The notes under the pieces: model-generated
The model's database searches: none
What the model was told of the DNA's origin: nothing
The model's input: only the letters and a program-made list of their open reading frames with translations
Position numbers and translations under genes: made by a program
Part shown: positions 5,790 to 22,851 of the stretch, in pieces
Numbering within the stretch: position 1 is the stretch's first letter
Layout: the number at the start of each line of letters is the position of its first letter
IMG/VR virus record: IMGVR_UViG_3300017971_000027
Location: 1 to 64,000 of that record
DNA: 64,000 nt
Reading direction: 5' to 3' (one strand)
Source: a virus

Positions 5790-6110
5790 CTACTCCACGA
5801 ACACCTCGATCATTCTATCCTGAAAATCCTTATGCTTATGCACCGCAATAACGCCCCAGTCAGTTCCATCAAATCGAATTCTATCATCATGGCCGATAGC
5901 AGACCTCGCGTCCTGCGAATATTTCTTTTCGAGAATGACACTGGCAGTTGAACGCAGAGTACGACCGCCTTCGTCTTGGACCTCGCGGATTTTGTAGTTG
6001 ACCCGACCGCGCACGGTCCTTGAAGTTGCAGGAGTCGTGATTGTACCCCATTTGTCTTTTACAGGGTCCTGTTTCAACGTAATGCTATCGACTAGATATG
6101 CTTCAATCAC
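5790..6110 (-). CDS. head closure / head-tail joining protein
   Basis: GTG start at 6110; DKWG, 'D..G....S.A.V' and DRI.FDG motifs; neck position. Confidence 0.7.
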   Translation of the reverse strand: MIEAYLVDSITLKQDPVKDKWGTITTPATSRTVRGRVNYKIREVQDEGGRTLRSTASVILEKKYSQDARSAIGHDDRIRFDGTDWGVIAVHKHKDFQDRMIEVFVE

Positions 6111-6483
6111 TTTCGGTCTCCGATTCTTCGTCAGACTCTTTACCGTCCACACGCTCTACAAGCGGTTCATCGAGGAACGGGATTATCTGGCCAACCATAA
6201 CGGTTTTCCCGTACTTGCCCACCATATCTCTAATAAGATCCCGCTGTTCTGATGTGATTTCGTGGACGCCACCTTCGTAAATCTTCTTGGCAAGCTCGTA
6301 CCGATCAATCTTGTCCTTGGCGTTAAGCCCCTGTTCGTCGGTTAGAAGACAGTCGGCACAAACAGAACCTACTGTAAGTTCGACCTGTTCGACTTGCTGA
6401 TCTTCACCGATACCCGTAACCCTGTTGGTCAGGAAAATCTGATTGTTCATATTGACCAGTGGTTGGCTGAAATTAAACTTCAT
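6103..6483 (-). CDS. hypothetical phage protein
   Basis: ATG at 6483 with RBS GGAG; LTVGSVCADCLL...K..RYELAKKI pattern typical of small phage structural-region proteins. Confidence 0.55.
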   Translation of the reverse strand: MKFNFSQPLVNMNNQIFLTNRVTGIGEDQQVEQVELTVGSVCADCLLTDEQGLNAKDKIDRYELAKKIYEGGVHEITSEQRDLIRDMVGKYGKTVMVGQIIPFLDEPLVERVDGKESDEESETESD

Positions 6484-7432
6484 CGTTCCGCTCCTTTGTT
6501 GTTTGTTGTCGTTTACACACCCATGTTCCGCGAAGATGTGGGTCCGTCGTTGGGGTATCGCCCACATATTTCGCGCTAAATCCGCAGTCGCCTAACACGC
6601 TCTCAACCCATACGTGCGTTGGTAGCGTCTGTCTGCCAACTTTTTTAAGTTCAATCTTGTCGCCCTCAACCATTCGCATTTCGATTAGCAATAAATCGTC
6701 TGCCATACTAGCAAGCGACGCTACGTTGTTCTTGTACTCATCAATTTGGAAATAATGTAACAGACCCATGCAAAAAACTATATCAAACGTGTCGTTAAGT
6801 TTGCGGAAATCCGTATTGACAAATACAACATCTTCACTGGCGAGTGCGCGACTCGCAATCTCGTTTGTAATATTAACCATATCTTGACGAATTTCGATTC
6901 CGGTACATTGACTAGCTCCGCGATACCATGATTCTAAGCATGTAAACCCGAGCTGTGATCCAACGTCAAGAACTGTTTTGCCGGTGAAGTCTATATTGTT
7001 AAAGTGTTTCCATTTATTCTTTCTACACGAACGTAGCCATTTCCGCTCTTTGTTGTCGTTAAACGTTTTGCCATTCCACTGCAAATTGTTGAACTCTGCG
7101 TGAACGCGAGCTGCTACGGCATCCTTATATGCACACACAGGGTCGACATAAATATCTATCAACCCGTCACGGTACCGCTCTGAATATTCCATTCGATGGG
7201 TTCCATCGTCAAGATCTTGACACGACAAACAATAATGGGCTGGCATGAATTTTGACGGGTCATAAGATTCTCGCATCCATTGTATCTTCTCCTCCCGTCT
7301 TGTAAGCCTATTGCCGTCGTGGCCAAGTATGTATTCGCGCACAGAGTCGAACACTTTATCGCTAGTTGGCACATCGCGAACTATTGTATGCGGGTCAACT
7401 TTTGATATTTCAAGACCTTCATACCAAGCCAT
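6473..7432 (-). CDS. class I SAM methyltransferase with N-terminal ParB-like domain
   Basis: GKTVLDVGSQLG motif I, GIE, FDIVFCMGLLHY; N-terminal DGTHR. Confidence 0.8.
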   Translation of the reverse strand: MAWYEGLEISKVDPHTIVRDVPTSDKVFDSVREYILGHDGNRLTRREEKIQWMRESYDPSKFMPAHYCLSCQDLDDGTHRMEYSERYRDGLIDIYVDPVCAYKDAVAARVHAEFNNLQWNGKTFNDNKERKWLRSCRKNKWKHFNNIDFTGKTVLDVGSQLGFTCLESWYRGASQCTGIEIRQDMVNITNEIASRALASEDVVFVNTDFRKLNDTFDIVFCMGLLHYFQIDEYKNNVASLASMADDLLLIEMRMVEGDKIELKKVGRQTLPTHVWVESVLGDCGFSAKYVGDTPTTDPHLRGTWVCKRQQTTKERNDEV

Positions 7433-7442
7433 CTCTTTTCTT

Positions 7443-8441
7443 TTAATCATTACCAGCAACCAGCTCCATAATTCTTTTTATGCGGTCTGAATATTTGTAG
7501 TTAGTGAGCGTCCGTTTTCTACCGGCATTCCCGATTGACTCGGCAACGTCTGGGTTGTTAAGAAGAAAGCTAATCTTCTCACAGGCATCTCTCGTATCGG
7601 TAAACGTAAGTATTTCTCTTCCAACCTCAAACTCATTCTCTATTCCGTCTACATAACCAACAACACACGGCCTGCCGGTAGCGGTAATAAGGTATAGCCT
7701 ATTGCTCCAATAGTTTTTAACGCCATCATATCCGAGTGGCATGAGGGCAGAACGTGCCGACCGGTAAAGATCGCAGAAATCTTGTCCATACTGCCTTGGA
7801 ACAAACTTGTCAACTCTCGGAAACTGTCTTAACTTAACCTCGCCACCTTCGCGGTAGAACCTGTTGCATATTATTGAAAACTGGTTCGACACACCCTGAA
7901 TGAGCTGAATCCTCGGACTATGCCTGCCATTCACCATGCCAGTAAACACGGTATCGTAAATCGGCTGGATGGATTCGTTGATTACAAACTCGTCCTCCTC
8001 GACACCTTGGAATAAATGCACAAAGTTTGCGCCATGTTGTGACCAGTCATAAGAACCGTCGGTCGCGAAAAAGAAATCGAATTTATGGCAGTTTCTTTTG
8101 ATGTCTTTATGTTTTCTTTCGCTGCCGGGATCATATGGGTTACACGAGTCAAAGGCCCAGCATATAAATTTTGATGATGGCGACCTTTGACTGTCTATCA
8201 TATCAATAAGATGTTCTCGCTCTTCGTGCATTAAATGTTGGTTTGTGTGTATGACATCATACGCAGAAAAGTCTGGCATTATCAGATCGCGTTTATTGTA
8301 TCTGCCGTGTTTGTATGCACCGTAGAAATCGACGTCGTATCCGAGCTTTCTGTATGCGTCAAAAATCCTTACGTTGTTGGATTTATCTCCGGTCAACGCA
8401 ACCCTACATGCGACTACAAGAACCCTAGGTCCATTTTTCAT
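7443..8441 (-). CDS. GT-B glycosyltransferase (CgeB/Glyco_trans_1_2-like)
   Basis: YWSNRLY..TATG, F..G.EI..F, I...GR...L..Y.Y..R motifs. Confidence 0.85.
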   Translation of the reverse strand: MKNGPRVLVVACRVALTGDKSNNVRIFDAYRKLGYDVDFYGAYKHGRYNKRDLIMPDFSAYDVIHTNQHLMHEEREHLIDMIDSQRSPSSKFICWAFDSCNPYDPGSERKHKDIKRNCHKFDFFFATDGSYDWSQHGANFVHLFQGVEEDEFVINESIQPIYDTVFTGMVNGRHSPRIQLIQGVSNQFSIICNRFYREGGEVKLRQFPRVDKFVPRQYGQDFCDLYRSARSALMPLGYDGVKNYWSNRLYLITATGRPCVVGYVDGIENEFEVGREILTFTDTRDACEKISFLLNNPDVAESIGNAGRKRTLTNYKYSDRIKRIMELVAGND

Positions 8442-9171
8442 TTTTAAAGAATTCTTTCACATAGTCGTCGCGGGTCTTCCAAAAATCAGGCATCTGCGAT
8501 ATGCTCGTCTCGTCGTTTGCGTTTTCTGCATTTTTCCACTCAGGTGTTGGAACGCAAAACATCTTTACACAGTATCGCGATATAAGCTCTCTGCTCCACG
8601 CTAAATCGTCAAGCCTCGTATCGTCTACACCTTTCATCGGTAACGAGAAAAATTCCTTTCTACCGAAATACATTCTGCCGAGAAAATCGACAGGTACAGG
8701 TTCGTCTATATTCCATCCACGTATAGTTTTTGCGTTCGAATACGACGGACCTGAAAACTTCCTACCCCAACAACCAACAACTATATCATACATGTTGTTT
8801 TTGCTGAGCTGAACATAGTTATTGACAAGCGACTCTACGACACCGTTAACTGTAATAATGTCATCGTCTGCTACGAGAATGTAATCGGTCGTAACGGAAT
8901 TGCCCATCATGAACTTTGACTGACCACCGTAGTTCCGATTCGACATTATGACGTCAACGTTTGGGTTGCACATAAACCAATTTACACACTCGTCGTAATC
9001 ATAAATACCACCACCGTTATCCCATACAAGGACACGCACCCCGTTATCGATCCACTGCTGGGCAACACGAACTATCGTATCGTATCGTTTCCACACCGGA
9101 ATAAGGACGGTGATATTCTTTTTGTTCAACAATATACCAACGCTCGGACCGCACACTGTTACCTCACCCAT
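8425..9171 (-). CDS. GT-A glycosyltransferase (GT2-like)
   Basis: VLIPVWKR, VLVWDN, ILVADDD (DxD) and DDL motifs. Confidence 0.8.
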   Translation of the reverse strand: MGEVTVCGPSVGILLNKKNITVLIPVWKRYDTIVRVAQQWIDNGVRVLVWDNGGGIYDYDECVNWFMCNPNVDVIMSNRNYGGQSKFMMGNSVTTDYILVADDDIITVNGVVESLVNNYVQLSKNNMYDIVVGCWGRKFSGPSYSNAKTIRGWNIDEPVPVDFLGRMYFGRKEFFSLPMKGVDDTRLDDLAWSRELISRYCVKMFCVPTPEWKNAENANDETSISQMPDFWKTRDDYVKEFFKNEKWT

Positions 9172-10099
9172 ATTGTAACTCCACTAGTTTTTCTAACCCT
9201 TCTTTCACACCTGTCGACGGCGTCCATATGACCTTGTTGCAAATATCGTTCTCTGCGACAAAAAATCTCTGGTCAGCAGGTCGCTCGTCTGCCTGTTTGA
9301 TTTTCTTGAACTTCTTGCCGGTGACTTTCGGTATCATATCGATAAGCTCGTTGACGGATACTTTGTTCTTCTCGCCACCGCCGACTACATAAATGCCTGT
9401 TAGTCCGTTGTCGATGCATTGTAGGTATAGAGCCACGAGATTGTCGATGTATAATATGTCTCGAACTTGTTCTCCGTCACCACATACCGTTATCGGTTGA
9501 CCGGTCATGTTCGCATGGACTAACCACGATACCCAGCCCTGATGAAACGAACCGCTTTGCGATGGACCGTAGATACAAGACTGTCGAAGCGTACACACGT
9601 TCATTCCGATCTCGGGTTTACCGTACTCTCGGACGTATAAATCGCCACAGAATTTACCGACACCGTATGGAGTCGCAGGATCGGGATACTCGTTATCGTC
9701 GCACCGTTCACCAGCGAAATCTTTGTTACCGTATACCTTGTTCGTGCTGGCGTATACGAAATATCCGACCTCATCTTTCCGCGCCCATTCAAGCGTGTTG
9801 AACAATCCGTCGACGTTGTCCTGAAAGTCCCGTCGGATGTCGTCGTAGCTTTTTGTTACCGCTGTTTGTCCTGCGAGGTGTACAACAACATCAGTGCTAC
9901 GAAAATCAAGGTCGTCAACCGAGATGTCACGAACCATTATGTTGCATTCTGGATAACCAGATTTGATGTCGTCTGCCCGTTCCTGCGACCCTTCCCGAGA
10001 CATATTGTCGATTATGGTCACGCTATCGCCACGTTCGAGCAATGCTTTGCATAAATGGTACCCAATAAACCCCGCACCGCCTACTGCTGCAATGTTCAT
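9164..10099 (-). CDS. NAD-dependent NDP-sugar epimerase, CDP-paratose 2-epimerase-like
   Basis: GGAGFIG, HLAGQTAVT.S, YASTNKVYG, PYG..K, RQSCIYG, QGWV.W, GDG.QVRDIL: the RfbE/Tyv subfamily signature. Confidence 0.9.
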   Translation of the reverse strand: MNIAAVGGAGFIGYHLCKALLERGDSVTIIDNMSREGSQERADDIKSGYPECNIMVRDISVDDLDFRSTDVVVHLAGQTAVTKSYDDIRRDFQDNVDGLFNTLEWARKDEVGYFVYASTNKVYGNKDFAGERCDDNEYPDPATPYGVGKFCGDLYVREYGKPEIGMNVCTLRQSCIYGPSQSGSFHQGWVSWLVHANMTGQPITVCGDGEQVRDILYIDNLVALYLQCIDNGLTGIYVVGGGEKNKVSVNELIDMIPKVTGKKFKKIKQADERPADQRFFVAENDICNKVIWTPSTGVKEGLEKLVELQYG

Positions 10100-10836
10100 T
10101 TTTTTTGCATCCTCGCAACGTATTCGGAATCTATACCAAACTCGCTAAACACTGATTCCGGTTTCTCGGGTATCTTATTGCGATGTTCTAGTAGGTTCAT
10201 GTCGTCACGATCACACCACACATATGACACATTTGAATCTCCCCTTACAGACAGTATCATTTTTTCCGGTAGCGAATAAATTTCTTTGGCGAGTCCTCTA
10301 AGCTTAAACCCATGCATCAGCCTTACAGCCGATATGAACTCTTCGTAATTGCTATAACATGACCGTGGGAATATTTTAGTCACAGTCTGAGGGTAGAAGT
10401 CTTGATAGTTCAACCGGTATAGCGTATCGGTTGGTTGATGCCAGCACAACCATCTGTGGAACGACAACGCAACAATATGATCGTTTTTTAATCGTTCAGT
10501 TTCCGATATAACATACTTAAACGCATCTTTATGGTATGCATCGTCGGAATCTATTCTGCTTACGGCGATATGGTCTGGATTATCTTGCACCAAGCTTTCC
10601 CACACAGCATACCCGTTATCGTATACCAGTGTGATGTTGTCGAGCGTAGCAAGCTCATCGGTGAGTACCTTATTCTTGTTCCCACAGAACAACCATATTT
10701 CAGGAGGTTCGTCCTGTTGCATGATACTGTTGTAACAGCTATGCACAAACATATGGATACGAGTTTTAACCCACGCTGCCGGTGGGCCATAGTCGCGATC
10801 AAGCGTAAACGGAATATAAACTACATGTTTAGTCAT
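10096..10836 (-). CDS. putative glycosyltransferase (rhamnosyltransferase-like)
   Basis: R..MF...C..SI..Q and SRIDSDDA motifs. Confidence 0.7.
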   Translation of the reverse strand: MTKHVVYIPFTLDRDYGPPAAWVKTRIHMFVHSCYNSIMQQDEPPEIWLFCGNKNKVLTDELATLDNITLVYDNGYAVWESLVQDNPDHIAVSRIDSDDAYHKDAFKYVISETERLKNDHIVALSFHRWLCWHQPTDTLYRLNYQDFYPQTVTKIFPRSCYSNYEEFISAVRLMHGFKLRGLAKEIYSLPEKMILSVRGDSNVSYVWCDRDDMNLLEHRNKIPEKPESVFSEFGIDSEYVARMQKK

Positions 10837-11945
10837 ATGAAATTGATGTGCTTCGGGTCGGAAGATATGCAGTAGTTAATGAAGTGGTTTTTGTTCTCGT
10901 ACATGCATGGAATTCTACATGCCCACATAGGAGAATGGTTTATGAACATACCGCGCTTCTCTCGACTCTCCCACAGCTCCTTGTAAGTTTGGTCCTTGAT
11001 AGAACCGACCAAGCCTTTCTTGTTATAGGCCAATGTGCAACAGGTGTACACGTTGTAATCCGCACCGACGTAGGATATGAGATCTTTGCTCGGACACCTG
11101 CCGTAATCCTGCGTCCCGTCGAACATGTCGTGGATACGGTCGTCGAAGAGGTTGAACACATGGAAATAGTCGTCGGACAGCTCTTGTGCAGCTTGTGCTA
11201 AATCGTGAGCCTCGTCAAAAAACGGCTTGAAGTACGCTGCACCTTGTGGTACGAACGCTGCTGAGATGCGGAGGTTGTCGACTCCAATATCTTTGAACAG
11301 GCGAGCTGCTTGGACTATTTCGCTGTAGTTCTCTTTGACAACAACGAACCCGATACCGATGATGTTCTTGTTCTTATACTCAACCAGTTTCTCGACGTTG
11401 CTGACTACTTTGTCAAACTCGTTCGGGCCGGTGTTACGAAGTGCCGAATAGGTTTCGCTGTTGCCTGAATCCACCGAGACGCGAACCCATGAACTGTCAG
11501 CGAGGATAGCGCACATGTCCGGTGTGAGTCTGGACCCATTTGTAACAAGTGCCAAATCGAGTTCGCTGTTGAGTATGTAGTCAAAGATATGCGTGATGTC
11601 TGGATGGACTAAAGGTTCACCACCACCGGTCACATGGATAGCTTTCCCGCCCATCTCAGCGAAACAATCGACTGTCTCATAAACCTTCAACGTGTCCAAC
11701 ATCTGGCGCGGATCGAATATCTGGCTAGACGGACTGCCCTTGATCCGGTACGCGCAAAAACTGCACCCTTGGTTACACACGTTCGATGGCACCAGTTGAA
11801 TCTGTATCGGCACCGTTTGTTCGCCCCGTTTTAATTGTTCAAGTCTATCGCAATGATGAACAATCTTGTAAGGGCTGTATTCATCTTTAATCAAGTGGCC
11901 ACACCTTTCCGTCTTTTTTCCGCTGCTCCAGCTTGCCGAAGTCAA
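10833..11945 (-). CDS. radical SAM protein with SPASM/twitch domain
   Basis: CNQGCSFC (Cx3Cx2C), GGGEP, TNG, RVSVD; C-terminal C...VY.CC...G.I...W...C...C. Start uncertain. Confidence 0.92.
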   Translation of the reverse strand: MTSASWSSGKKTERCGHLIKDEYSPYKIVHHCDRLEQLKRGEQTVPIQIQLVPSNVCNQGCSFCAYRIKGSPSSQIFDPRQMLDTLKVYETVDCFAEMGGKAIHVTGGGEPLVHPDITHIFDYILNSELDLALVTNGSRLTPDMCAILADSSWVRVSVDSGNSETYSALRNTGPNEFDKVVSNVEKLVEYKNKNIIGIGFVVVKENYSEIVQAARLFKDIGVDNLRISAAFVPQGAAYFKPFFDEAHDLAQAAQELSDDYFHVFNLFDDRIHDMFDGTQDYGRCPSKDLISYVGADYNVYTCCTLAYNKKGLVGSIKDQTYKELWESREKRGMFINHSPMWACRIPCMYENKNHFINYCISSDPKHINFI

Positions 11946-12561
11946 AGGGTTTTTTCATCCTCGCGTCCCAATGAGTCTGGTCAATATCGCCATCATCTTT
12001 GCGAGGCACCTTGTGATGTACTTCCGAGTCGGGACTCTGGAAGAATTTGTCATACTTTTCTGCCAGCCACAAAATCTCAGGGCAGGCGAAATGGAAATAG
12101 TCTGGATTGTACAACCATCTGTTCGGGTACCGGTCGAGGAACTTAGCTCCGACCAGACATACGCCGGTCTTGTGAAACTTGTTCGGCTCTTGCGTAAACC
12201 CGATCACGCCGTCACCGTCGGGGAACTTCTCGTTCATCCACCATCGCGCCATCTCGATACTGTTCATGTGAAACTCGACGTCGTCGGTCGCCATCAGTGC
12301 GCTATCGAGCACGAGATGTTGGGTCGCCCAGTTTCGGCAGTGGACAGAGCCGGAATGCTGCTGGATCAGTGCTGAGAATCTATTCGGTCTCTGGATGGTG
12401 CTGTAACCAAACTCAAGCATCAACCGTTCGTGGGTGATACCATCAGCATCACATACAACACAGACCTTAATCCAGTCATGCGCCGGTATACTGTCAAGAC
12501 ACCGCACCAGCTTGTCCCACCGGTTGCGGGTCGGAATCACTATAAGTACTTCGTTTACCAT
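11887..12561 (-). CDS. GT2 family glycosyltransferase
   Basis: Likely start MVNE at 12561; IVIPTRNR, VCD and TDD motifs. Confidence 0.8.
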   Translation of the reverse strand: MVNEVLIVIPTRNRWDKLVRCLDSIPAHDWIKVCVVCDADGITHERLMLEFGYSTIQRPNRFSALIQQHSGSVHCRNWATQHLVLDSALMATDDVEFHMNSIEMARWWMNEKFPDGDGVIGFTQEPNKFHKTGVCLVGAKFLDRYPNRWLYNPDYFHFACPEILWLAEKYDKFFQSPDSEVHHKVPRKDDGDIDQTHWDARMKKPFDFGKLEQRKKDGKVWPLD

Positions 12562-13235
12562 CCGTAGTCCACTCCGAGCAGATCGTACAGTTCTTGGTTT
12601 GGTTTTCTGTAGAAGTCTTCTGCGATTTCCCTGATATCTTCCGGCATTGGAAACTTCTCTCGACCAACGCCTGCACACGGGTCGACGACAGGGTAATGTT
12701 TATGTTCGATTGCGTAAAGATCCAGTTTCCAGAATATGTTTTTCATGACTTTGCCTGTGAGAATGTAGAACGCCTCGCTCGGGTAGATCATGAAATGGTC
12801 ACGTTTGAAATGCGTGAACCATAACTTGAGATGTTGCGCATAAAGACCTTGCTGGTATGGCTCAATACTTGTATCAGTCATATCGCCAAAATCAACATCC
12901 TTGCACATGCGACGACGACAGTAGTGGCTCCATACCCTCTCAACCGGATCGCGTAGCAGCACGATGAATTTTGGGTCGTCGATATCTGCTTTCAACCGTT
13001 CAGGCACCCAGTCTCTCACAAGATAATGTGGAGTTGCCTCGACAATGTATCTCTCGCCGTTCGCGTTAAATCGTGCCTTATAGTAATCGATACCATTGTC
13101 ATAATAGGAGTCGTAGTAGTGCGTCTCTTTCGGATTTGAACCTGATATTTCAGGATGCTCGCAAAGGTACTGGAACATCGAGCTGGTCCCGCCACGCTGG
13201 ACGCCAAGCACGAATAGGTTAGGTAAGCCGTTCAT
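12555..13235 (-). CDS. PAPS-dependent sulfotransferase (heparan-sulfate O-sulfotransferase-like)
   Basis: 5'-PSB loop GVQRGGTSS, HP, KETHY, EATP.Y; 3'-PB motif LRDPVERVWS.Y. Confidence 0.92.
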   Translation of the reverse strand: MNGLPNLFVLGVQRGGTSSMFQYLCEHPEISGSNPKETHYYDSYYDNGIDYYKARFNANGERYIVEATPHYLVRDWVPERLKADIDDPKFIVLLRDPVERVWSHYCRRRMCKDVDFGDMTDTSIEPYQQGLYAQHLKLWFTHFKRDHFMIYPSEAFYILTGKVMKNIFWKLDLYAIEHKHYPVVDPCAGVGREKFPMPEDIREIAEDFYRKPNQELYDLLGVDYGW

Positions 13236-13839
13236 ATATCTCTACACCGACACAGTTATTAGGTCGTCTGACCTTCTTTGTGAGTCGTTCCATCTTCGGC
13301 GGTCTGAACTCGAGATAGTCGTAGACCGGCATCATGGCGTCGAGCGGTTGTGTTACAAGATGCTCGAATTCTAATATAACGCCACCGTGTATGTTAACAA
13401 ACTTCGCCCACTTGCGATACATCGCCATTGTTATGTCGTAATGGGCTTTCGTTGAGACTACTCCGCGTTCGGTTTTATTATCCAGCTTAAACAACGATGA
13501 ATACACGTCAGACAAATGTCTCACGATAAACACATATCGAGCCTTTGGAAACCGCATCGGAATCTTGTGAATGTCGAACGCTTCTGTCGACGCATTGAAC
13601 GCGAACTTGGCCCCGCTGTTTCTGGGAAGCTCGTTGAACCGTTTTAGGATTGACTGAACTTCAGGAACCTTCTCGTACCGTCGAATCTCGGCCACGTATA
13701 TCGCGAACCAAAGTTCATGTGGCTCGAAGAGTATGGTCCCGCAGTCAGGAGACATCTGCACGAGTTCACGAAGGATGGTCGTTCCACCTCGCCGTGGCCC
13801 TATTATGAATATCGGGTTGTCGTTCATTTGTCCACTCAC
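13219..13839 (-). CDS. sulfotransferase (Sulfotransfer_3-like)
   Basis: PIFIIGPRRGGTT, FEP, FPKARYVFIVRH..DV.SS, FE.LV..P motifs. Confidence 0.88.
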   Translation of the reverse strand: MSGQMNDNPIFIIGPRRGGTTILRELVQMSPDCGTILFEPHELWFAIYVAEIRRYEKVPEVQSILKRFNELPRNSGAKFAFNASTEAFDIHKIPMRFPKARYVFIVRHLSDVYSSLFKLDNKTERGVVSTKAHYDITMAMYRKWAKFVNIHGGVILEFEHLVTQPLDAMMPVYDYLEFRPPKMERLTKKVRRPNNCVGVEIYERLT

Positions 13840-15212
13840 TGGTATCTCAGTTTTCGTGAAGCCTGTTTTTGCTGCACCACAGTCTTACCTTCGCCCATCT
13901 GATCGGTTCTGCAATATGGCTCTGGCAAAACCATCGTCCGTATAGTGTCAAATTTAGTTTCTAAGACACTTTCTAGGTTCTTCTGACCCCACGGTACGTC
14001 TTGGTTGTCTATGTTCTTAGCGTTCAATTCTGTCCACTCGTCAATCAGGTCGCGAACATGCGGTTCGTTGACTAATAACAGCGTTCCAGACATTAGTTCG
14101 CGGCCTCGACGATCAGGCCAATCGTGATAATGGACAGCCAGATCGTAGTCTGGATTATCAAACAGATCAGGATAAGCGAGAAGCTCAGAATCAGCGTCAA
14201 GCCATAGAATGTTCCTGCCAGAATGTTTTTTAAGCATCTCGGCCAGAAACGAGGCTTTGTGGTACGTGTTCGCTTTCCACGACCCACGCGATGGGATTTC
14301 CTGTACATCGGTCTCCAGTCCAAACTTGATAGCCGACTGTTCCATCACATCAGCAAACTTCTTATACTCATTGCTAGTGTAATATGACACTACAATCGGT
14401 CTCTCGGGTTTACTTGTGATTTCAGTATCCCAGTCTGACAGCCTGAAACATTTGAGCGATGATTCGGGGTTAAGGTTAACGATATCAGCTCGGGCCTTCG
14501 CAGATTCCGAATACTTATTGAAATTTGTTACGAACTGTTTATAGACAGCGGAATCCTGACGTTGTGGGTAACCGGAATGGAAATGTTCCTGTTTCTCGCC
14601 TTGTTTCGAGTGTAGGTCAAATCCCAACATATAGATTGGATTTGCACCAAGGTTCAGCGCGATGTTCAATGCGCCGAGACCTGAGTTGCCACCATGAAGG
14701 ATACCTTCGCTGAACTTCTCGGTCAGCTTTTCTTTGTTGGCTTGTAGAACTATTGTGTTACGTGGAATTCTTTCAGTGCCGTCACGCATGTAGACTATCG
14801 GACAACGAAGATCCATGTACTTTTGCTTGATAATCCTTGCCTGAATCTTGTCTTCCGCCGTCGGGAGCTTCGACCCTTCAGACCGATACATAAGCTCTTT
14901 GTCGATCCAATTAAAATACCTGCTGTCCATACCAAACATGATGCTTGGAGGAAACGTCTCGTAAGACCGGTTAATACCGATTACGAGTTCACCTTTCAAA
15001 AGTTCCCAGTCGAATCCTTCGAGGCTCTTACCGCCCCCGACAACGAAACACCGCCTCCCTTCCCACATTCCGTCCCATATCTTACCGACAGGGTTTTGCC
15101 GTGGTTTAAGTGGCGGTGGTGCTTTGAGGACAGAAACTTCAGGATTCACTCTGTGCTTTACTTTCGTTCTTGGCATAAGCTTGGAATACTGTCTTTTACG
15201 AGCGGGTATCAT
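13836..15212 (-). CDS. DUF115/Maf-like domain fused to a GT-A nucleotide-diphospho-sugar transferase
   Basis: CFVVGGG.SL, IGIN, NSG..A.N.A..LGA.PIY.LGFD; C-terminal K..FL...L...ILWLDAD. Confidence 0.75.
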   Translation of the reverse strand: MIPARKRQYSKLMPRTKVKHRVNPEVSVLKAPPPLKPRQNPVGKIWDGMWEGRRCFVVGGGKSLEGFDWELLKGELVIGINRSYETFPPSIMFGMDSRYFNWIDKELMYRSEGSKLPTAEDKIQARIIKQKYMDLRCPIVYMRDGTERIPRNTIVLQANKEKLTEKFSEGILHGGNSGLGALNIALNLGANPIYMLGFDLHSKQGEKQEHFHSGYPQRQDSAVYKQFVTNFNKYSESAKARADIVNLNPESSLKCFRLSDWDTEITSKPERPIVVSYYTSNEYKKFADVMEQSAIKFGLETDVQEIPSRGSWKANTYHKASFLAEMLKKHSGRNILWLDADSELLAYPDLFDNPDYDLAVHYHDWPDRRGRELMSGTLLLVNEPHVRDLIDEWTELNAKNIDNQDVPWGQKNLESVLETKFDTIRTMVLPEPYCRTDQMGEGKTVVQQKQASRKLRYQ

Positions 15213-17349: not shown

Positions 17350-18315
17350 CTATAGAGACGTAGCCAAGTCCTTGATGTATCCGTGCAAGTCGGCATTCGT
17401 ATAGTCGACACCAAACTGGCAATACAACTGTTCGGATTCACCCGCGCCAGTCGTGCCAAGAGGTTCGAAGAATACCGTGCCTTTGCCCGGTACCGGCATG
17501 AACACGGGAGCGATCTTTGCGACGTCAAGCAACGCCAAATCGTCTGTCGCCATTACCGGATCGTAAACTACACCACACGGGCCGATTGTGGGTAGGTTGA
17601 TTGTGCGTAGAGTAACGCCACCAACGTTCCACGAATCAGGCGCATAGCCGTAGATGTCTACGAGCTGCTGGATCTGGAACGCGCCAGCAAAGATAACAGG
17701 AGTCTGCATCGAGCCGGTTTGTCCAAGGACCGCAACTTCGAGCTGGTTCATCAGGTCTTTCGACAAAACGCCACTTGCGCCGTCGATTTCGGTCGAACCA
17801 TCGTTGACCATCGCCGTGATGACACCAGTTGTTTTACCGTTTGTACCCGCTGTTGTCGGGTCGGTACCTGCGCCAAGCAACATCGAGTATTCAAGGTCAA
17901 TAGCGAGCTGCGCTAAGTGAATATCACGCTGCTTCTGCATGTCGCCCATGTTGACCACGCCTTCGCCCACGATAGCTTCCCCGCCAATCGCGTTCATCAT
18001 TGAACGTTTCTTATAGGAGAACGTGAAACGACGCTGGTGCAACTCAATGTAATTGGTTTTCTGTGCTGGTGCATAGATGTCGGACGCTGGGGCCGTCAAC
18101 GATCCAGTTTCAGTCACAGTGTAGGTCTGTGATGCTGCGTCCAACGTGATAAAGTTACCCATAACGAAGGTATCCGTTCCCGTTGTACGTCCACCAGTCA
18201 AACCACCCGTCATCGAAAGCAACGGGGTTTTGCGGTATTGATTACCGATTACAAATAGCTCTCCCGCGTAATTTGGAAGTGCTACAGTGTCGGCATTGCC
18301 GTCTGTGTGAGCCAT
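17350..18315 (-). CDS. major capsid protein (HK97 fold, SU10/DUF5309-like)
   Basis: TPLLSM.G, N..E, D.EY..L.G, T.GV, L..TG....Q and HG.I motifs; follows the scaffold gene. Confidence 0.9.
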   Translation of the reverse strand: MAHTDGNADTVALPNYAGELFVIGNQYRKTPLLSMTGGLTGGRTTGTDTFVMGNFITLDAASQTYTVTETGSLTAPASDIYAPAQKTNYIELHQRRFTFSYKKRSMMNAIGGEAIVGEGVVNMGDMQKQRDIHLAQLAIDLEYSMLLGAGTDPTTAGTNGKTTGVITAMVNDGSTEIDGASGVLSKDLMNQLEVAVLGQTGSMQTPVIFAGAFQIQQLVDIYGYAPDSWNVGGVTLRTINLPTIGPCGVVYDPVMATDDLALLDVAKIAPVFMPVPGKGTVFFEPLGTTGAGESEQLYCQFGVDYTNADLHGYIKDLATSL

Positions 18316-18344: not shown

Positions 18345-19070
18345 CTAGCCACGCAGCATGGATGGGTTTTTCCGAATGAGTTCTTGCAACTCGTATTTCT
18401 TCATACGAATCTTATCTTGAAGAGTTTGTCTTTCGACCGGATCTGTAGTTGACCACATTTTCTTTTCAAGAGCAGCAATCTCAGCAGACGGATTACCCGC
18501 ACCAACTGCGGTCTCTTCATCGCGAACTTTGCCCTTCGGCGGTGGGTCAGACTTCATTTGTTCTTTGACTTGAGCCTGAACTCTTTCTGTTTCTGACTTC
18601 TTGAAGTCGTCGATCACACCCGAAAGCTCTTCGAGTTCCCCCGGCATCTTCAAGAATATCTTGCGCATTGCGGGGTCCGTAATCTCCTTGTTATCAAGAA
18701 GCTGGTTAATCTGATCTTTTCTGAGGTACTCTGCCAAAGCGTTTTGTGAAGTCTGTGCCTGTTCGCGAAGCTCTGCAATGAGTTCTTTCTCTTTGCCCTC
18801 TTCAAGAAGACGTTTTTCGCGAGCCTCTTTCTTGGCCTGCTCTTTCGCAGCCTTGATTCTCGCTTCCTCTTCTTTCTGGCGAGTTCTGACAGCTTCGTTA
18901 GCCCGTCTGTCGCCCTCGCGCTGTAGCATATCTTCAAGTTTGGCCTTAACATCGTCACGCTCGAAAAAAGCATCAATGTCAATTTCGCCTATTTCCCCGT
19001 TAGTTCCAGCATCCGGCTCGACAGTTTTTGGCGGGTCGTCTACATAGCCCTCTACGTTTGAATCTGGCAT
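18345..19070 (-). CDS. capsid scaffolding protein
   Basis: Charged coiled coil (Q.E.DRR..EA), between portal and MCP. Confidence 0.8.
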   Translation of the reverse strand: MPDSNVEGYVDDPPKTVEPDAGTNGEIGEIDIDAFFERDDVKAKLEDMLQREGDRRANEAVRTRQKEEEARIKAAKEQAKKEAREKRLLEEGKEKELIAELREQAQTSQNALAEYLRKDQINQLLDNKEITDPAMRKIFLKMPGELEELSGVIDDFKKSETERVQAQVKEQMKSDPPPKGKVRDEETAVGAGNPSAEIAALEKKMWSTTDPVERQTLQDKIRMKKYELQELIRKNPSMLRG

Positions 19071-19098: not shown

Positions 19099-20523
19099 TT
19101 AGTCGGTACTTTGTTGACCTTCACCGGAATCGTCATCATCCCCAGACTCTTCCTTCTGTTCGTTTGCCCGTCCTGCAAACTCGAGTTGGAGTTCCATCTG
19201 GTTAAGCTGCTCTTTCCGTTTAAGATCGGCTTCCTCGTTCGGATCTTTGATCGATGGGATATGTCTCAAGATTGATTCCAGCGACATGAACGGAGCGATA
19301 AGTGGAAGTGCTTTCCAGATCTCCATCTCGTCTACCGGGATGTTGAGATCGAATTTCACCTCGTAATCTTCAAGAACCGGCATCTGCAATACTGACCAGA
19401 CTCTGTTTATCAGGTTGATCCTAGAGCGCAGACCCATCTCGAAGTATTTGGTGAATATTCCTGCCTGCTCGATTTGTGGCTGGAGTTTCAACTTGAGGGC
19501 GATACCACTCGCTCGACCAGTTGATCCGACGATAGTATGGATATCTGCAACGCGAGCCATCATGTGAATGTCACTACGGGTGACCTTCATATCAAACTCT
19601 ACTTTTTGTGGCGCGTTGCCTCGATCCAAGAATTTTACGACAGCATCCTCGCGATTGGTGGTTATGATTTTGTCCTCCCGCATCTTCTGGATATACGATT
19701 TGCCATCGTTGTCCAGCTGATACAGCGCGTTAGGACTGTAACCGTTAATCCACAGTAGACTGTCGACGTTAAAAATAACATCGTCCGCATTAGAAGAACG
19801 TACTGAGTTCCAAATATCCTGCTGGCTGATTATGTCTTCGCCAATAAATGAACGGTCATCACTCGAGACAGAAAAAACCACTATTGGCATCTGGCCATAT
19901 TTATGTTCTGTTATTTCGATATTGGAAGGTTGCGCAAACCTGTGTTCTGGGCTTTCGATCATGAACGACACAATTTTACGGTCGTCGTATACGGTGTAAT
20001 GATCGATAGGCTCTTGGGTGATGCGACCTCGGAAAAGGGTCCCTTCTTCTATCTCAACTTTAAGTATCGCGCCTTGCATGACGCCGTCTTGGTCGTAGAC
20101 GAAAGCCCATCCTTGAGGGCCATAAATGTCAATGCCGATATTCTCGCCGTCAAATGAATGCACCTCGACCGAGAAACCTTCGAGCACACAGTTGAGATAA
20201 TGCTCCATGTCGAGCGCACTGATTCCTGAGTCTCGAACCATCTTCATGAACTCACGGAGGGCGGTTTGGTCTGCATCTACTTTCGAGAGGGTATACTTCA
20301 CGGGGTTGGTCATACAGAACCCGACATGAGAATCGACGATATACTTGATCCAGTTTGTTATTACCTTGTTTTTTGTCTCGCCGTCAGTTTTGCGGGTACC
20401 GGCTTCCTCAAGGATAGCTTGGATGCCGTTGTAGTAGTCCACGCGCCCTTTTTGCACGTTACGACGGTCCTGCTTACTATCCCAAAGCTTGATTACCTCG
20501 TCTACAGTTAAATCGATACCCAT
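19099..20523 (-). CDS. portal protein, SPP1 gp6-like
   Basis: YY.G...I, NK...NW.KYIVD..VG...NPV.Y, H.YG..P.V, SG.ALK.KL motifs. Confidence 0.95.
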   Translation of the reverse strand: MGIDLTVDEVIKLWDSKQDRRNVQKGRVDYYNGIQAILEEAGTRKTDGETKNKVITNWIKYIVDSHVGFCMTNPVKYTLSKVDADQTALREFMKMVRDSGISALDMEHYLNCVLEGFSVEVHSFDGENIGIDIYGPQGWAFVYDQDGVMQGAILKVEIEEGTLFRGRITQEPIDHYTVYDDRKIVSFMIESPEHRFAQPSNIEITEHKYGQMPIVVFSVSSDDRSFIGEDIISQQDIWNSVRSSNADDVIFNVDSLLWINGYSPNALYQLDNDGKSYIQKMREDKIITTNREDAVVKFLDRGNAPQKVEFDMKVTRSDIHMMARVADIHTIVGSTGRASGIALKLKLQPQIEQAGIFTKYFEMGLRSRINLINRVWSVLQMPVLEDYEVKFDLNIPVDEMEIWKALPLIAPFMSLESILRHIPSIKDPNEEADLKRKEQLNQMELQLEFAGRANEQKEESGDDDDSGEGQQSTD

Positions 20524-21282: not shown

Positions 21283-22851
21283 CTACGCGCCGATATCAGT
21301 CCTGCTCATGAACCCCAGCCTCGGGTCCAGATCCCAGTCAGGGAAATACGTCAGTGCCAACGCATCGGCTTTGTCTGGTGAACGGCCTATCCGTTCTTTA
21401 ATATCTTTCTTTTTCTCCATCTGAATCTTGCCAGACGAATTCGTCTCATACGCCATCTCGCATAATTCTTCGAGCAGTTCATCGTCCGGCGGTAAACACA
21501 ACGTCGCGCCAAATGCAGGGTCTAAAGCATCCCGTAATTTCCAATAACATGCTGCGCGAACATTTAAGAATTGTCGCTGTCCAGTCTCGTCAGAAACGTG
21601 CCGTGCATGAGCGGAGAATTTAACTGGTATACAGTTCGTGATTCCTTGCTCTTCAATTCGCGCATAGACACCGGCACCTTCGCCGATAGCGTCAATAAAC
21701 CCTATCGCAGTCTTGTCACGGCCAAGAATGTTTTTCAGCTCCCCTGCATGTTTCATGTGGGGATTGCCAAGACCTCGACCGGGGATTTCGAATTCGGTCA
21801 CAATATCCCCGTATCGGTGGCAATATACCGAAGAGTCTGACCCCATACCAGCGATGTCCGCACCGAGTCGAAGCGAACCGTTTGTTTCCTTCTCATCATC
21901 TTCGTTCCAATTTGACCATCGTTTGAATGCCGCTTCGACCCAAGTGCGGGGAATGAGACAGTCTTCGGATTGGCGCGGAAATTGGCCAAGTACTTTGCCG
22001 AGCATAATATCTGAAGGTCGGTACCATTGGCCTTTATAACAGAAGTCGAATTCTGTGTCTGGTTTCGCGTCGATCTCTTTGATCTTCGTACACCACGACG
22101 GCATAAGAAGACGTTCTTCAATCCACGTCTTATCGACCTGACCCGGAATATTATTCTCGCCCGTCAGCACGTTCGGCGCGTTCAGACAGTTCAGAGTGAA
22201 TTTGGCGTAGAGGGGATCGAAGAATGATTTATAAAACCCGCCCGTTATCCGAACGGGGTTGCCTACGATCAATAGGCGGGAGTTACCGGTAAGAAGACCC
22301 TCTATCGCCCTAAATGTATCGTCCGTTATGCCGGAGGCCTCGGACATGACTACCAGAACATTTTCGCTGTGGTATCCTGTCCATGCCTCGGCTGATTTGT
22401 CAGCTGCTTTGAATCCTTCGAGATAATGGTTCGAACCTGAGATTTTGCCTTTTTCCGGCAATGTCAGACGTTGCGTCAGTAGCCGACCTTCCAACTCTAT
22501 GCCAAGGCTGGCCAACTTTTCGTTGGCGTTGTTCCACATGCCTGCAATCTCGGTCATCATGATCGACTTAACCTGACGCAGAGTTGGAGCGGTCGAGACT
22601 ACTTTAGAAGGAGAATTGAGGTACAAGAACGCCAGTGATATGGCAGCAGCAACGTAATCTTTACCTCGTGCGTGACCAGAACGGACAGTTGTGCGCCGAT
22701 GATCTTTGCAACACTGCACAGAATCGACGATTTCCTGTTGTTCAGGATCAAGATTTACGTGGAGAACGTCTCGAATCCATTCATTCCAGTGACCATCCTC
22801 GAAGTCGTTTTCGGGCGTTCCACGGTAGTATGTCTTAGATTTTATTTGCAT
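21283..22851 (-). CDS. terL: terminase large subunit
   Basis: Walker A SGHARGKD, VVMSEASG, GNP coupling motif, nuclease LGADIA, DAIGEGAGV, SPD.ADAL. Confidence 0.97.
   Translation of the reverse strand: MQIKSKTYYRGTPENDFEDGHWNEWIRDVLHVNLDPEQQEIVDSVQCCKDHRRTTVRSGHARGKDYVAAAISLAFLYLNSPSKVVSTAPTLRQVKSIMMTEIAGMWNNANEKLASLGIELEGRLLTQRLTLPEKGKISGSNHYLEGFKAADKSAEAWTGYHSENVLVVMSEASGITDDTFRAIEGLLTGNSRLLIVGNPVRITGGFYKSFFDPLYAKFTLNCLNAPNVLTGENNIPGQVDKTWIEERLLMPSWCTKIKEIDAKPDTEFDFCYKGQWYRPSDIMLGKVLGQFPRQSEDCLIPRTWVEAAFKRWSNWNEDDEKETNGSLRLGADIAGMGSDSSVYCHRYGDIVTEFEIPGRGLGNPHMKHAGELKNILGRDKTAIGFIDAIGEGAGVYARIEEQGITNCIPVKFSAHARHVSDETGQRQFLNVRAACYWKLRDALDPAFGATLCLPPDDELLEELCEMAYETNSSGKIQMEKKKDIKERIGRSPDKADALALTYFPDWDLDPRLGFMSRTDIGA

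Follow-up and report, generated by a model that had tools for sequence, protein, structure and literature searches.

Introduction

Glycosylation of virion proteins has, to our knowledge, been established for only a few actinobacteriophages, and we know of no report of sulfate on a phage glycan. In actinobacteriophages the modification shields particles from antibodies, and Che8, Corndog and Myrna reportedly decorate their own capsid and tail-tube subunits with O-linked glycans. Here, a ten-gene cassette of glycosyltransferase (GT), sulfotransferase and sugar-modifying genes was analysed in the uncultured IMG/VR virus record IMGVR_UViG_3300017971_000027, a complete viral genome of 83,796 bp with direct terminal repeats that is contained in metagenome runs labelled sediment and seawater; no RNA data set was listed as containing it. 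The window was the first 64 kb (64,000 nucleotides) of this record. The cassette probably (about 0.65) directs a late, cytoplasmic O-glycosylation of virion proteins in which a variable, sulfated and methylated glycan is built from host donors on a putative acceptor; to judge from the genes, its product is most likely a sulfated virion sugar layer, undescribed for any bacterial virus.

Virion glycosylation of mycobacteriophages is given as established (Freeman et al. 2023, as cited in PMC12619734). Those systems, some of which include methyltransferases, and the present cassette have in common soluble, phage-encoded GTs located with the structural genes. The cassette differs in its Maf/A64R-type lead fusion, six GT domains, two sulfotransferases, a radical S-adenosylmethionine (SAM) enzyme and a short-chain dehydrogenase/reductase (SDR), and it stands in uncultured marine siphophage-type genomes.

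A64R of PBCV-1, a eukaryotic (chloro)virus, acts on the atypical N-linked glycan of the major capsid protein. Like A64R, which works on a virion-protein glycan, the lead enzyme of the cassette has a virus-encoded soluble GT-A domain with a DxD motif; unlike A64R, with which it shares 11% sequence identity, it is fused to a Maf-like domain. With the Maf flagellin nonulosonic-acid GTs (PF01973; for example Maf of M. magneticum, GkMaf and CbMaf) it has in common the central-domain fold and GT42-like motifs at the donor site, the conserved Ser of NSG among them, but the domains flanking this part in Maf are missing (the match covers residues 249-522 of the 632-aa Maf only) and a second GT is joined to it. 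Flagellin is O-glycosylated on Ser/Thr by Maf enzymes inside the cytoplasm, and host CMP-Kdo or CMP-Neu5Ac can be used (bioRxiv 10.1101/2020.06.03.131540). Cytoplasmic action on Ser/Thr of a protein later assembled into an extracellular polymer is proposed here likewise; the annotated late genes include none for flagellin.

One of the sulfotransferases aligns over its full length with heparan-sulfate 3-O-sulfotransferases (3-OSTs), including the loops that bind 3'-phosphoadenosine-5'-phosphosulfate (PAPS) and the motif E-x-H-x-x-D. Unlike these, it is without a signal or membrane anchor and has Arg for Lys before GGT in the 5'-phosphosulfate-binding (5'-PSB) loop. Bacterial O-antigen and capsule clusters are comparable in presenting a hypervariable set of GT, sugar-modifying and tailoring genes at a fixed site, with modules shuffled among relatives. 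Unlike them, the cassette encodes no initiating phosphoglycosyltransferase, flippase, polymerase or transporter, and all of its products are soluble, so that neither assembly of the glycan on a lipid carrier nor its export is possible.

Organization of the cassette

All ten open reading frames (ORFs) were present at 6473-15212 on the minus strand (table 1). Given the most plausible start codons, they overlap by a few bases or abut, and they lie on one strand with the late genes. The ORF coordinates and flank matches agree with an initial annotation of this DNA, in which the ten genes were described as tightly coupled, co-oriented with late genes and placed between head-tail adaptor and head-closure genes. 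Promoter-like and terminator-like sites in the cassette showed no excess over shuffled sequence. Six GT domains, two in the lead fusion and four in further GTs, stand inside the late operon.

No membrane segment was predicted in any of the ten products (maximum 19-residue hydropathy <=1.43); therefore no component of lipid-carrier, flippase or polymerase type is present. Cassette products gave no match to the Pfam families of initiating transferases, flippases/polymerases or ATP-binding cassette (ABC) exporters, and lipid-carrier polysaccharide synthesis was ruled against by the absence of any membrane component in the cassette.

The lack of lipid-carrier machinery also speaks against modification of a host structure (envelope glycans, flagellin, pilin or S-layer) for receptor masking, phage exclusion or the freeing of progeny from debris. 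This alternative is unlikely, even though the natural target of Maf enzymes is a host protein, flagellin (bioRxiv 10.1101/2020.06.03.131540), temperate phages change host serotype via glycosyltransferases according to PMC12619734, and no acceptor was identified among virion proteins. The genes lie in the morphogenesis operon, outside any early or lysogeny module, and the same arrangement occurs in phage-type contigs of bins labelled as many phyla, with presumably differing surfaces. No integrase or resolvase was found in the genome, and expression solely in lysogeny, which the initial annotation had named as an adverse outcome, is for that reason unlikely.

No APS kinase, ATP sulfurylase or CysD-type gene was found in the whole 83.8-kb genome, and therefore host PAPS would be required; the initial annotation had reached the same view from the window. 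Genes for NeuB and CMP-sugar synthetases were likewise absent from the phage genome. These absences fit the proposed O-glycosylation of virion proteins because Maf enzymes can use host-made CMP-sugars.

The lead enzyme

The lead enzyme matched PHROG 4603 ('sialyltransferase') at 4e-24, and its AlphaFold2 (AF2) model (pLDDT 85, pTM 0.85) comprised two domains and a disordered tail. Residues ~45-270 form a Maf/GT42-like domain with the motifs GGGKSL and NSG...GFD. By VIA, residues 31-297 matched Maf of M. magneticum (5mu5) with Z 14.4 over 204 aa; weaker matches were obtained to MptE and to the sialyltransferases ST8SiaIII and CstI (2p56, Z 9.8). The family profile matched CstII at E 0.003, with GGGPSL and NSG...GFD aligned to the CMP-sugar site motifs (GxGPSL, [TN]SG...GxD). 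Residues 270-458 form an A64R-like GT-A domain with its DxD in LDADS (339-343), matched by VIA to PBCV-1 A64R (2p6w) with Z 18.6 and a root-mean-square deviation of 2.8 over 180 aa, far above the next matches, and by Foldseek to the same structure at 2e-7. D339 and D341 of the DxD were invariant in the family alignment, as were D96 and D199, and S177 of NSG was nearly so. In M. magneticum Maf the catalytic acidic residues are E324 and D415. The family comprises ~30 protein-database clusters, whose aligned members are 28-43% identical to this protein; other members pass or carry precomputed PF01973 matches, and that of L087 scores 40 bits. The PHROG and fold matches bear out the DUF115/Maf-like and GT fusion of the initial annotation, with weak Pfam evidence.

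On these models, the lead enzyme appears to join two folds, each best matched among solved structures by an enzyme directed at protein (flagellin and a viral capsid protein). It is predicted to work like Maf in action, yet it is not a strict Maf, the central Maf part alone being matched. Residues 1-42 form a disordered, strongly basic tail rich in Lys, Arg and Pro, which could serve for docking onto the particle or onto nucleic acid.

Fold matches to protein-directed transferases argue against a very unlikely alternative, DNA hypermodification, in which a sulfated or methylated glycan would be placed on the phage genome as a protection against restriction. Virus-encoded GTs reportedly attach a variety of glycans to DNA (Pyle et al. 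2024, cited by PMC12619734), one GT of the cassette weakly matches the PHROG family of beta-glucosyl-hydroxymethylcytosine (HMC) alpha-glucosyltransferases (2e-4), and the methyltransferase may have a ParB-like N-domain. However, no thymidylate-synthase/hydroxymethylase homologue (PF00303) was found in the whole genome, the methyltransferase is of the small-molecule class-I type, outside the DNA methylase families, and the cassette lies among neck genes, away from those for replication. Counts of 4-base palindromes showed no strong avoidance and were uninformative on DNA modification.

Sulfotransferases and radical SAM enzyme

To judge from their motifs, both sulfotransferases are PAPS-type enzymes and mutually unrelated. 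They have only the PSB loop in common and are therefore not a recent duplication. Sulfotransferase 1 contains the PAPS 5'-phosphosulfate loop GPRRGGTT; no catalytic base was identified, and neither a close solved relative nor a close carbohydrate-specific one was found. Its orthologues directly follow the Maf gene in the related loci L023, L035 and G002. Sulfotransferase 2 matched human 3-OST-3A1 (1t8t) end to end at 5e-23 (phmmer), with GVQRGGTSS for GVKKGGTRA in the 5'-PSB loop and RDPVERVWS for RDPVTRAIS in the 3'-phosphate motif. The catalytic motif E-x-H-[FY]-[FY]-D of 3-OST-3A1 is retained as E37-x-H39-x-x-D42 (E-T-H-Y-Y-D). This match, together with those to Pfam (table 1), upholds the earlier call of two sulfotransferases.

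The radical SAM/SPASM enzyme has 8vpo and the BlsE cytosylglucuronate decarboxylase as its nearest solved chains (2e-8). A radical SAM gene occurs in 4/4 close relatives, in three of which it stands beside a sugar-type GFO/IDH/MocA oxidoreductase gene. Because of the BlsE decarboxylase among the nearest solved relatives and the oxidoreductase neighbour in those three, we infer that this enzyme works on a sugar.

Another arrangement, in which the virion is glycosylated but the sulfotransferases, radical SAM enzyme and methyltransferase act on protein side chains (Tyr sulfation, cross-links, Lys/Arg methylation), is decidedly unlikely. By the NCBIfam matches, most enzymes of the SPASM radical SAM type mature peptides, and the 206-aa sulfotransferase is without a close carbohydrate-specific relative, but the 226-aa enzyme matches carbohydrate 3-O-sulfotransferases end to end, catalytic motif included, and both the sugar-nucleoside decarboxylase among the nearest solved radical SAM relatives and the oxidoreductase gene adjoining it in three of the four close relatives point to sugar chemistry.

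Close relatives and cassette content

Three relatives (G001, G002 and L023) carry cassettes of 10-11 genes at the same site, in the order adaptor, cassette, head completion; synteny in related phages had been proposed as a check in the initial annotation. In G001 (70,279 bp, terminal repeats, capsid 68% identical) the ten genes include the Maf fusion, a GT-A, a polysaccharide deacetylase, two Rhamno_transf-like GTs, two GT2s, a radical SAM enzyme and a GFO/IDH/MocA oxidoreductase, and no sulfotransferase was found in the cassette. The eleven-gene cassette of G002 (84,323 bp, terminal repeats) includes an FkbM/RfbT-type methyltransferase, a radical SAM enzyme, a GFO/IDH/MocA oxidoreductase and one sulfotransferase. 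In L023 (capsid 70% identical) the Maf fusion is followed by a sulfotransferase, and the rest consists of a GT-A, a GT1-like GT, a deacetylase, a Rhamno_transf-like GT, a GT2, a methyltransferase, a radical SAM enzyme and an oxidoreductase. The Maf fusion, GT-A, Rhamno_transf-like GT and radical SAM enzyme form the common core, and sulfotransferases, oxidoreductases, deacetylases and methyltransferases vary. A conserved core with a variable periphery is the pattern of an O-antigen-like diversifying locus. The adaptor gene lies directly upstream of the Maf gene in close relatives and on either side of the cassette elsewhere.

Four genes of the present cassette have a G+C content of 42.6-44.0%, against 48.9% for the genome. 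Among them, a GT2-GT1-methyltransferase block (43.5-44.0%) directly follows the Maf gene in L038, L039 and L046. Genes of lower G+C and a block recurring separately in other phages indicate that the cassette is composite and was probably acquired as a mosaic. These same features would suit moron-like passenger cargo at a recombination hotspot, with no particle role, for example for a soluble sulfated oligosaccharide or a metabolite. Such cargo is extremely unlikely: the cassette is at the same site in 4/4 close relatives, the lead enzyme is conserved across hundreds of phages, and translational coupling to essential neck genes makes neutral cargo unlikely.

Distribution in uncultured phages

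Relatives of the Maf fusion are encoded in at least 489 IMG/VR stretches, as found in an alignment-based scan; a single-protein scan of IMG/VR with the fusion gave nothing, and an alignment query was needed. Locus context was read in the best 80 IMG/VR loci, selected via the Maf gene, and in genome-bin contigs. BLAST-detectable homologues of the structural proteins of this phage were present in 44 of the 80 loci, all co-oriented with the Maf gene, and a structural gene lay downstream in 34 of the 48 loci having at least 6 kb of downstream sequence. Adaptor homologues occurred in 25/80 loci, with the cassette following the adaptor gene in six and preceding it in 19. Most contigs of bacterial and archaeal bins that were long enough for context likewise had the fusion in a phage morphogenesis module; two large Aminicenantes contigs resembling prophages were among them.

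The Pfam families counted in 150 cassette ORFs of 33 loci were GT2 (14), methyltransferases (8 and 7), Glyco_trans_1_2 (7), Sulfotransfer_3 (6), Sulfotransfer_1 (2), epimerases (4), radical SAM (4) and deacetylases (4). Sulfotransferase homologues were present in 8/80 loci, both types together in none of these eight. Homologues of the 224-aa GT-A were present in 24 of the 80 loci, making it the most frequent cassette gene apart from Maf, the gene used to select the loci, and those of the 248-aa GT2 in 11 of 80 viral loci. Full-length homologues of the methyltransferase were also present in other Maf cassettes.

Long versions of the Maf gene were enzyme fusions, and fusions to structural domains were never seen. 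A single 996-aa ORF in a phage structural module (L027:9959-12949, plus strand) joins Maf-like, GT-A, GT2 and radical SAM parts; L033 encodes a Maf-GT-methyltransferase-GT29 fusion, and L064 and L087 encode Maf and GT9 fusions. The fusions in L027 and L033 link the radical SAM enzyme and the methyltransferase to one pathway with the Maf-GT. Two jumbo-phage-sized contigs (L040, 169 kb; L044, 223 kb) also carry Maf-type cassettes, which encode GT2, GT1 and a 3-OST-like sulfotransferase, and L040 has a radical SAM gene in addition.

Among deposited phages, megablast of the region gave no match, and tblastn against 50,697 records revealed no cultured phage with the Maf fusion or the 226-aa sulfotransferase. 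The fusion gave one partial match, to its N-domain, in the uncultured 462-kb phage LR756500.1, and the sulfotransferase gave none. A literature search found no paper on Maf/DUF115-type enzymes in phage virion glycosylation or on sulfotransferases in phage structural modules; this gap is probably explained by the absence of either gene from deposited cultured phages. The view that the cassette is unusual is to be qualified: it belongs to a very large gene class of uncultured phages.

Proposed pathway and acceptors

The gene content, folds, catalytic motifs, solubility, operon position and conserved site with its variable cassette were combined into a pathway in which the timing of expression, donors, order of steps, acceptor and product are predicted. 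The cassette would be transcribed and translated together with the neck genes. The Maf/sialyltransferase-like domain of the lead enzyme would attach the first sugar, probably an acidic one supplied by the host in CMP-activated form, to Ser/Thr of a virion protein, and its A64R-like GT-A domain would add a second. The four further GTs may then lengthen the chain, with the SDR and the radical SAM enzyme remodelling a sugar or nucleotide sugar. Two different sulfotransferases would put on sulfate from host PAPS, and the methyltransferase would put on methyl groups from SAM.

The proteins richest in Ser+Thr were the 206-aa and 135-aa products encoded after the capsid gene (23% each). The 206-aa protein belongs to a small family (49 representatives). 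Its AF2 model (pLDDT 93) showed a small beta domain resembling neck and portal-tail proteins, with an inserted beta-sandwich like those of carbohydrate-binding modules (CBMs), and its BFVD matches were all unnamed. It may, on this model, be a collar or decoration protein that binds carbohydrate. A homologue scan recovered only the known close relatives and four distant loci without a Maf gene; co-occurrence with the Maf gene was therefore uninformative. The initial annotation had proposed Ser/Thr-rich decoration and tube proteins as acceptors. By composition the 206-aa protein (23%) and the tube protein (19%) were taken as candidates, but mycobacteriophages have glycosylated Ser/Thr tails and the tube and capsid C-termini of cassette-bearing phages are without them.

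Several points weigh against O-glycosylation of the virion by this cassette. The lead enzyme scored 18.3 bits (E 0.002) against the MptE-like/DUF115 family PF01973, below the cut-off of 34.6. Evidence on structural context comes mostly from loci selected by Maf. No Ser/Thr-rich C-termini were found in the tube, capsid or adaptor proteins of Maf-bearing loci, and the fold matches of the 206-aa protein to neck proteins and CBM-like sandwiches are weak (all Z < 8). Modification of virion proteins is predicted from the genes, and late expression from their position. Searches by composition and by fold yielded no acceptor. Virion glycan machinery, as put forward in the initial annotation, is still the best-supported reading on position, solubility, folds and synteny in relatives.

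A wider proposal is made tentatively, at a little short of even odds: that this phage and several relatives carry a strain-variable, sulfated and methylated O-glycan coat, started by a Maf/A64R-type enzyme and specified by an O-antigen-like neck-module locus. No bacterial virus would have been described before with a sulfated coat of glycoprotein, and an unsulfated version of the system would extend across hundreds of uncultured phages. If such cassettes coat virions, environmental phages would commonly wear sugar coats that evolve fast, and here these would be negatively charged, sulfated and methylated. They might affect how virions adsorb to particles and mucus, how stable they are and how hosts and grazers recognize them, as well as the surface chemistry of viral particles in the sea. 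In addition, the fusion of Maf/A64R type would represent a new class of protein O-glycosyltransferase with a simple, soluble two-domain design, of potential use in glyco-engineering. The locus offers ten defined genes and, as candidate acceptors, four or five proteins drawn from the 206-aa and 135-aa products, the capsid, the tube and the adaptor. The present analysis adds a structural identity for the two-domain lead enzyme, synteny across four genomes, the mosaic of modules and the fusions between enzymes.

Other cassette genes

Family and fold matches agree with the earlier assignments of the radical SAM/SPASM protein, rhamnosyltransferase-like GT, CDP-paratose-epimerase-like SDR, CgeB-like GT and GT2-like enzymes. 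The G001 orthologue of the 224-aa GT-A is 42% identical and matches GT64/GT2. The 246-aa GT gave no direct Pfam match; its G001 homologue (29% identity) matched PF11316 at 2.5e-6, and the protein atlas placed the 246-aa GT itself in PF11316 clusters (feature score 0.97, TM 0.76-0.80). With the GT-B-like enzyme as query, sequence comparison with the PDB returned no useful match.

The best solved relatives of the SDR are CDP-tyvelose 2-epimerases (9rl0, 1e-41; 1orr, 1.5e-38). This similarity is the sole basis for the dideoxy sugar suggested earlier, which was not borne out: no other 3,6-dideoxy pathway gene was found among the ten cassette products, the rest of the genome not being searched for them. 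From the 'ParB-methyltransferase' of the initial annotation, the methyltransferase was retained (7e-9); the N-terminal ~145 aa gave no Pfam match even at E 5, and weak ParB_N fold leads (TM 0.42-0.52) indicate that this part possibly has a ParB/Srx-like fold.

Late gene order and flanking genes

All late genes are on the minus strand (table 1).

Table 1. Coordinates of the cassette genes and of the surrounding late genes in the window.
Feature	Position	Strand	Basis or remark
Large terminase	21283-22851	minus	
Portal	19099-20523	minus	
Scaffold	18345-19070	minus	
SU10-type major capsid protein	17350-18315	minus	
Small proteins, 206, 135 and 66 aa	between capsid gene and adaptor-like gene	minus	
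Candidate acceptor, 206 aa	16628-17248	minus	directly after capsid gene; 23% Ser+Thr
Head-tail adaptor-like protein, 224 aa	15214-15888	minus	upstream flank; G001 orthologue matches Gp77 fiber-tail adaptor family
Ten-gene cassette	15212 down to 6473	minus	
Bifunctional glycosyltransferase (lead enzyme), 458 aa	13836-15212	minus	PHROG 4603 and AF2 model fold matches
Sulfotransferase 1, 206 aa, Sulfotransfer_3 type	13219-13839	minus	PF13469 2e-13, PF00685 2e-6
Sulfotransferase 2, 226 aa, heparan-sulfate 3-O-sulfotransferase-like	12555-13235	minus	Pfam 1e-9
GT-A-type glycosyltransferase, 224 aa from ATG 12561 (ORF open to 12678)	11887-12561	minus	weak GT2/EpsD matches
Radical SAM/SPASM enzyme, 353 aa, cluster motif CNQGCSFC	10833-11894	minus	PF04055 7e-24, SPASM 1.5e-4
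Rhamno_transf (PF11316)-like GT-A, 246 aa	10096-10836	minus	via G001 homologue and protein atlas
NAD-dependent SDR epimerase/dehydratase, 311 aa	9164-10099	minus	Pfam Epimerase 3e-44
GT2-like glycosyltransferase, 248 aa	8425-9171	minus	PF00535 4e-5
GT-B-type (Glyco_trans_1_2, CgeB-like) glycosyltransferase, 332 aa	7443-8441	minus	PF13524 1.4e-18
SAM-dependent class-I methyltransferase, 325 aa	6473-7450	minus	Methyltransf_25/11/23, 7e-9 and weaker
126-aa ORF, acidic Ser/Glu/Asp-rich C-terminus	6103-6483	minus	between cassette and head-completion gene
Head-completion/head-tail adaptor protein, 120 aa	5790-6152	minus	downstream flank; PHROG 793 2e-6, weak Phage_HCP
Neck1-like protein, tail terminator, tube, chaperones, tape measure	after head-completion gene, in this order	minus	
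Tail tube protein, 192 aa	4258-4836	minus	PHROG 2175; 19% Ser+Thr; C-terminus GYGGGSPS
Tape measure protein, 1082 aa		minus	last in listed late order, after chaperones

No family match and no G001 homologue were found for the 126-aa ORF. Of the adaptor-like protein only the C-terminal part (~residues 96-221) is widely conserved, and a sequence search of the PDB with this protein gave spurious matches to designed repeats and antibodies only. Its extra N-terminal beta domain of ~95 aa, with a weak immunoglobulin (Ig) V-like signal, is confined to this phage and its closest relatives; in most other Maf-bearing phages the adaptor consists of the ~140-160-aa C-terminal part alone. Between the cassette and the head-completion gene of L023 (18967-20814, plus strand), a 615-aa Phage_min_cap2 protein with an Intein_splicing match (E 3e-4) was observed, which may represent an intein inside a minor capsid protein.

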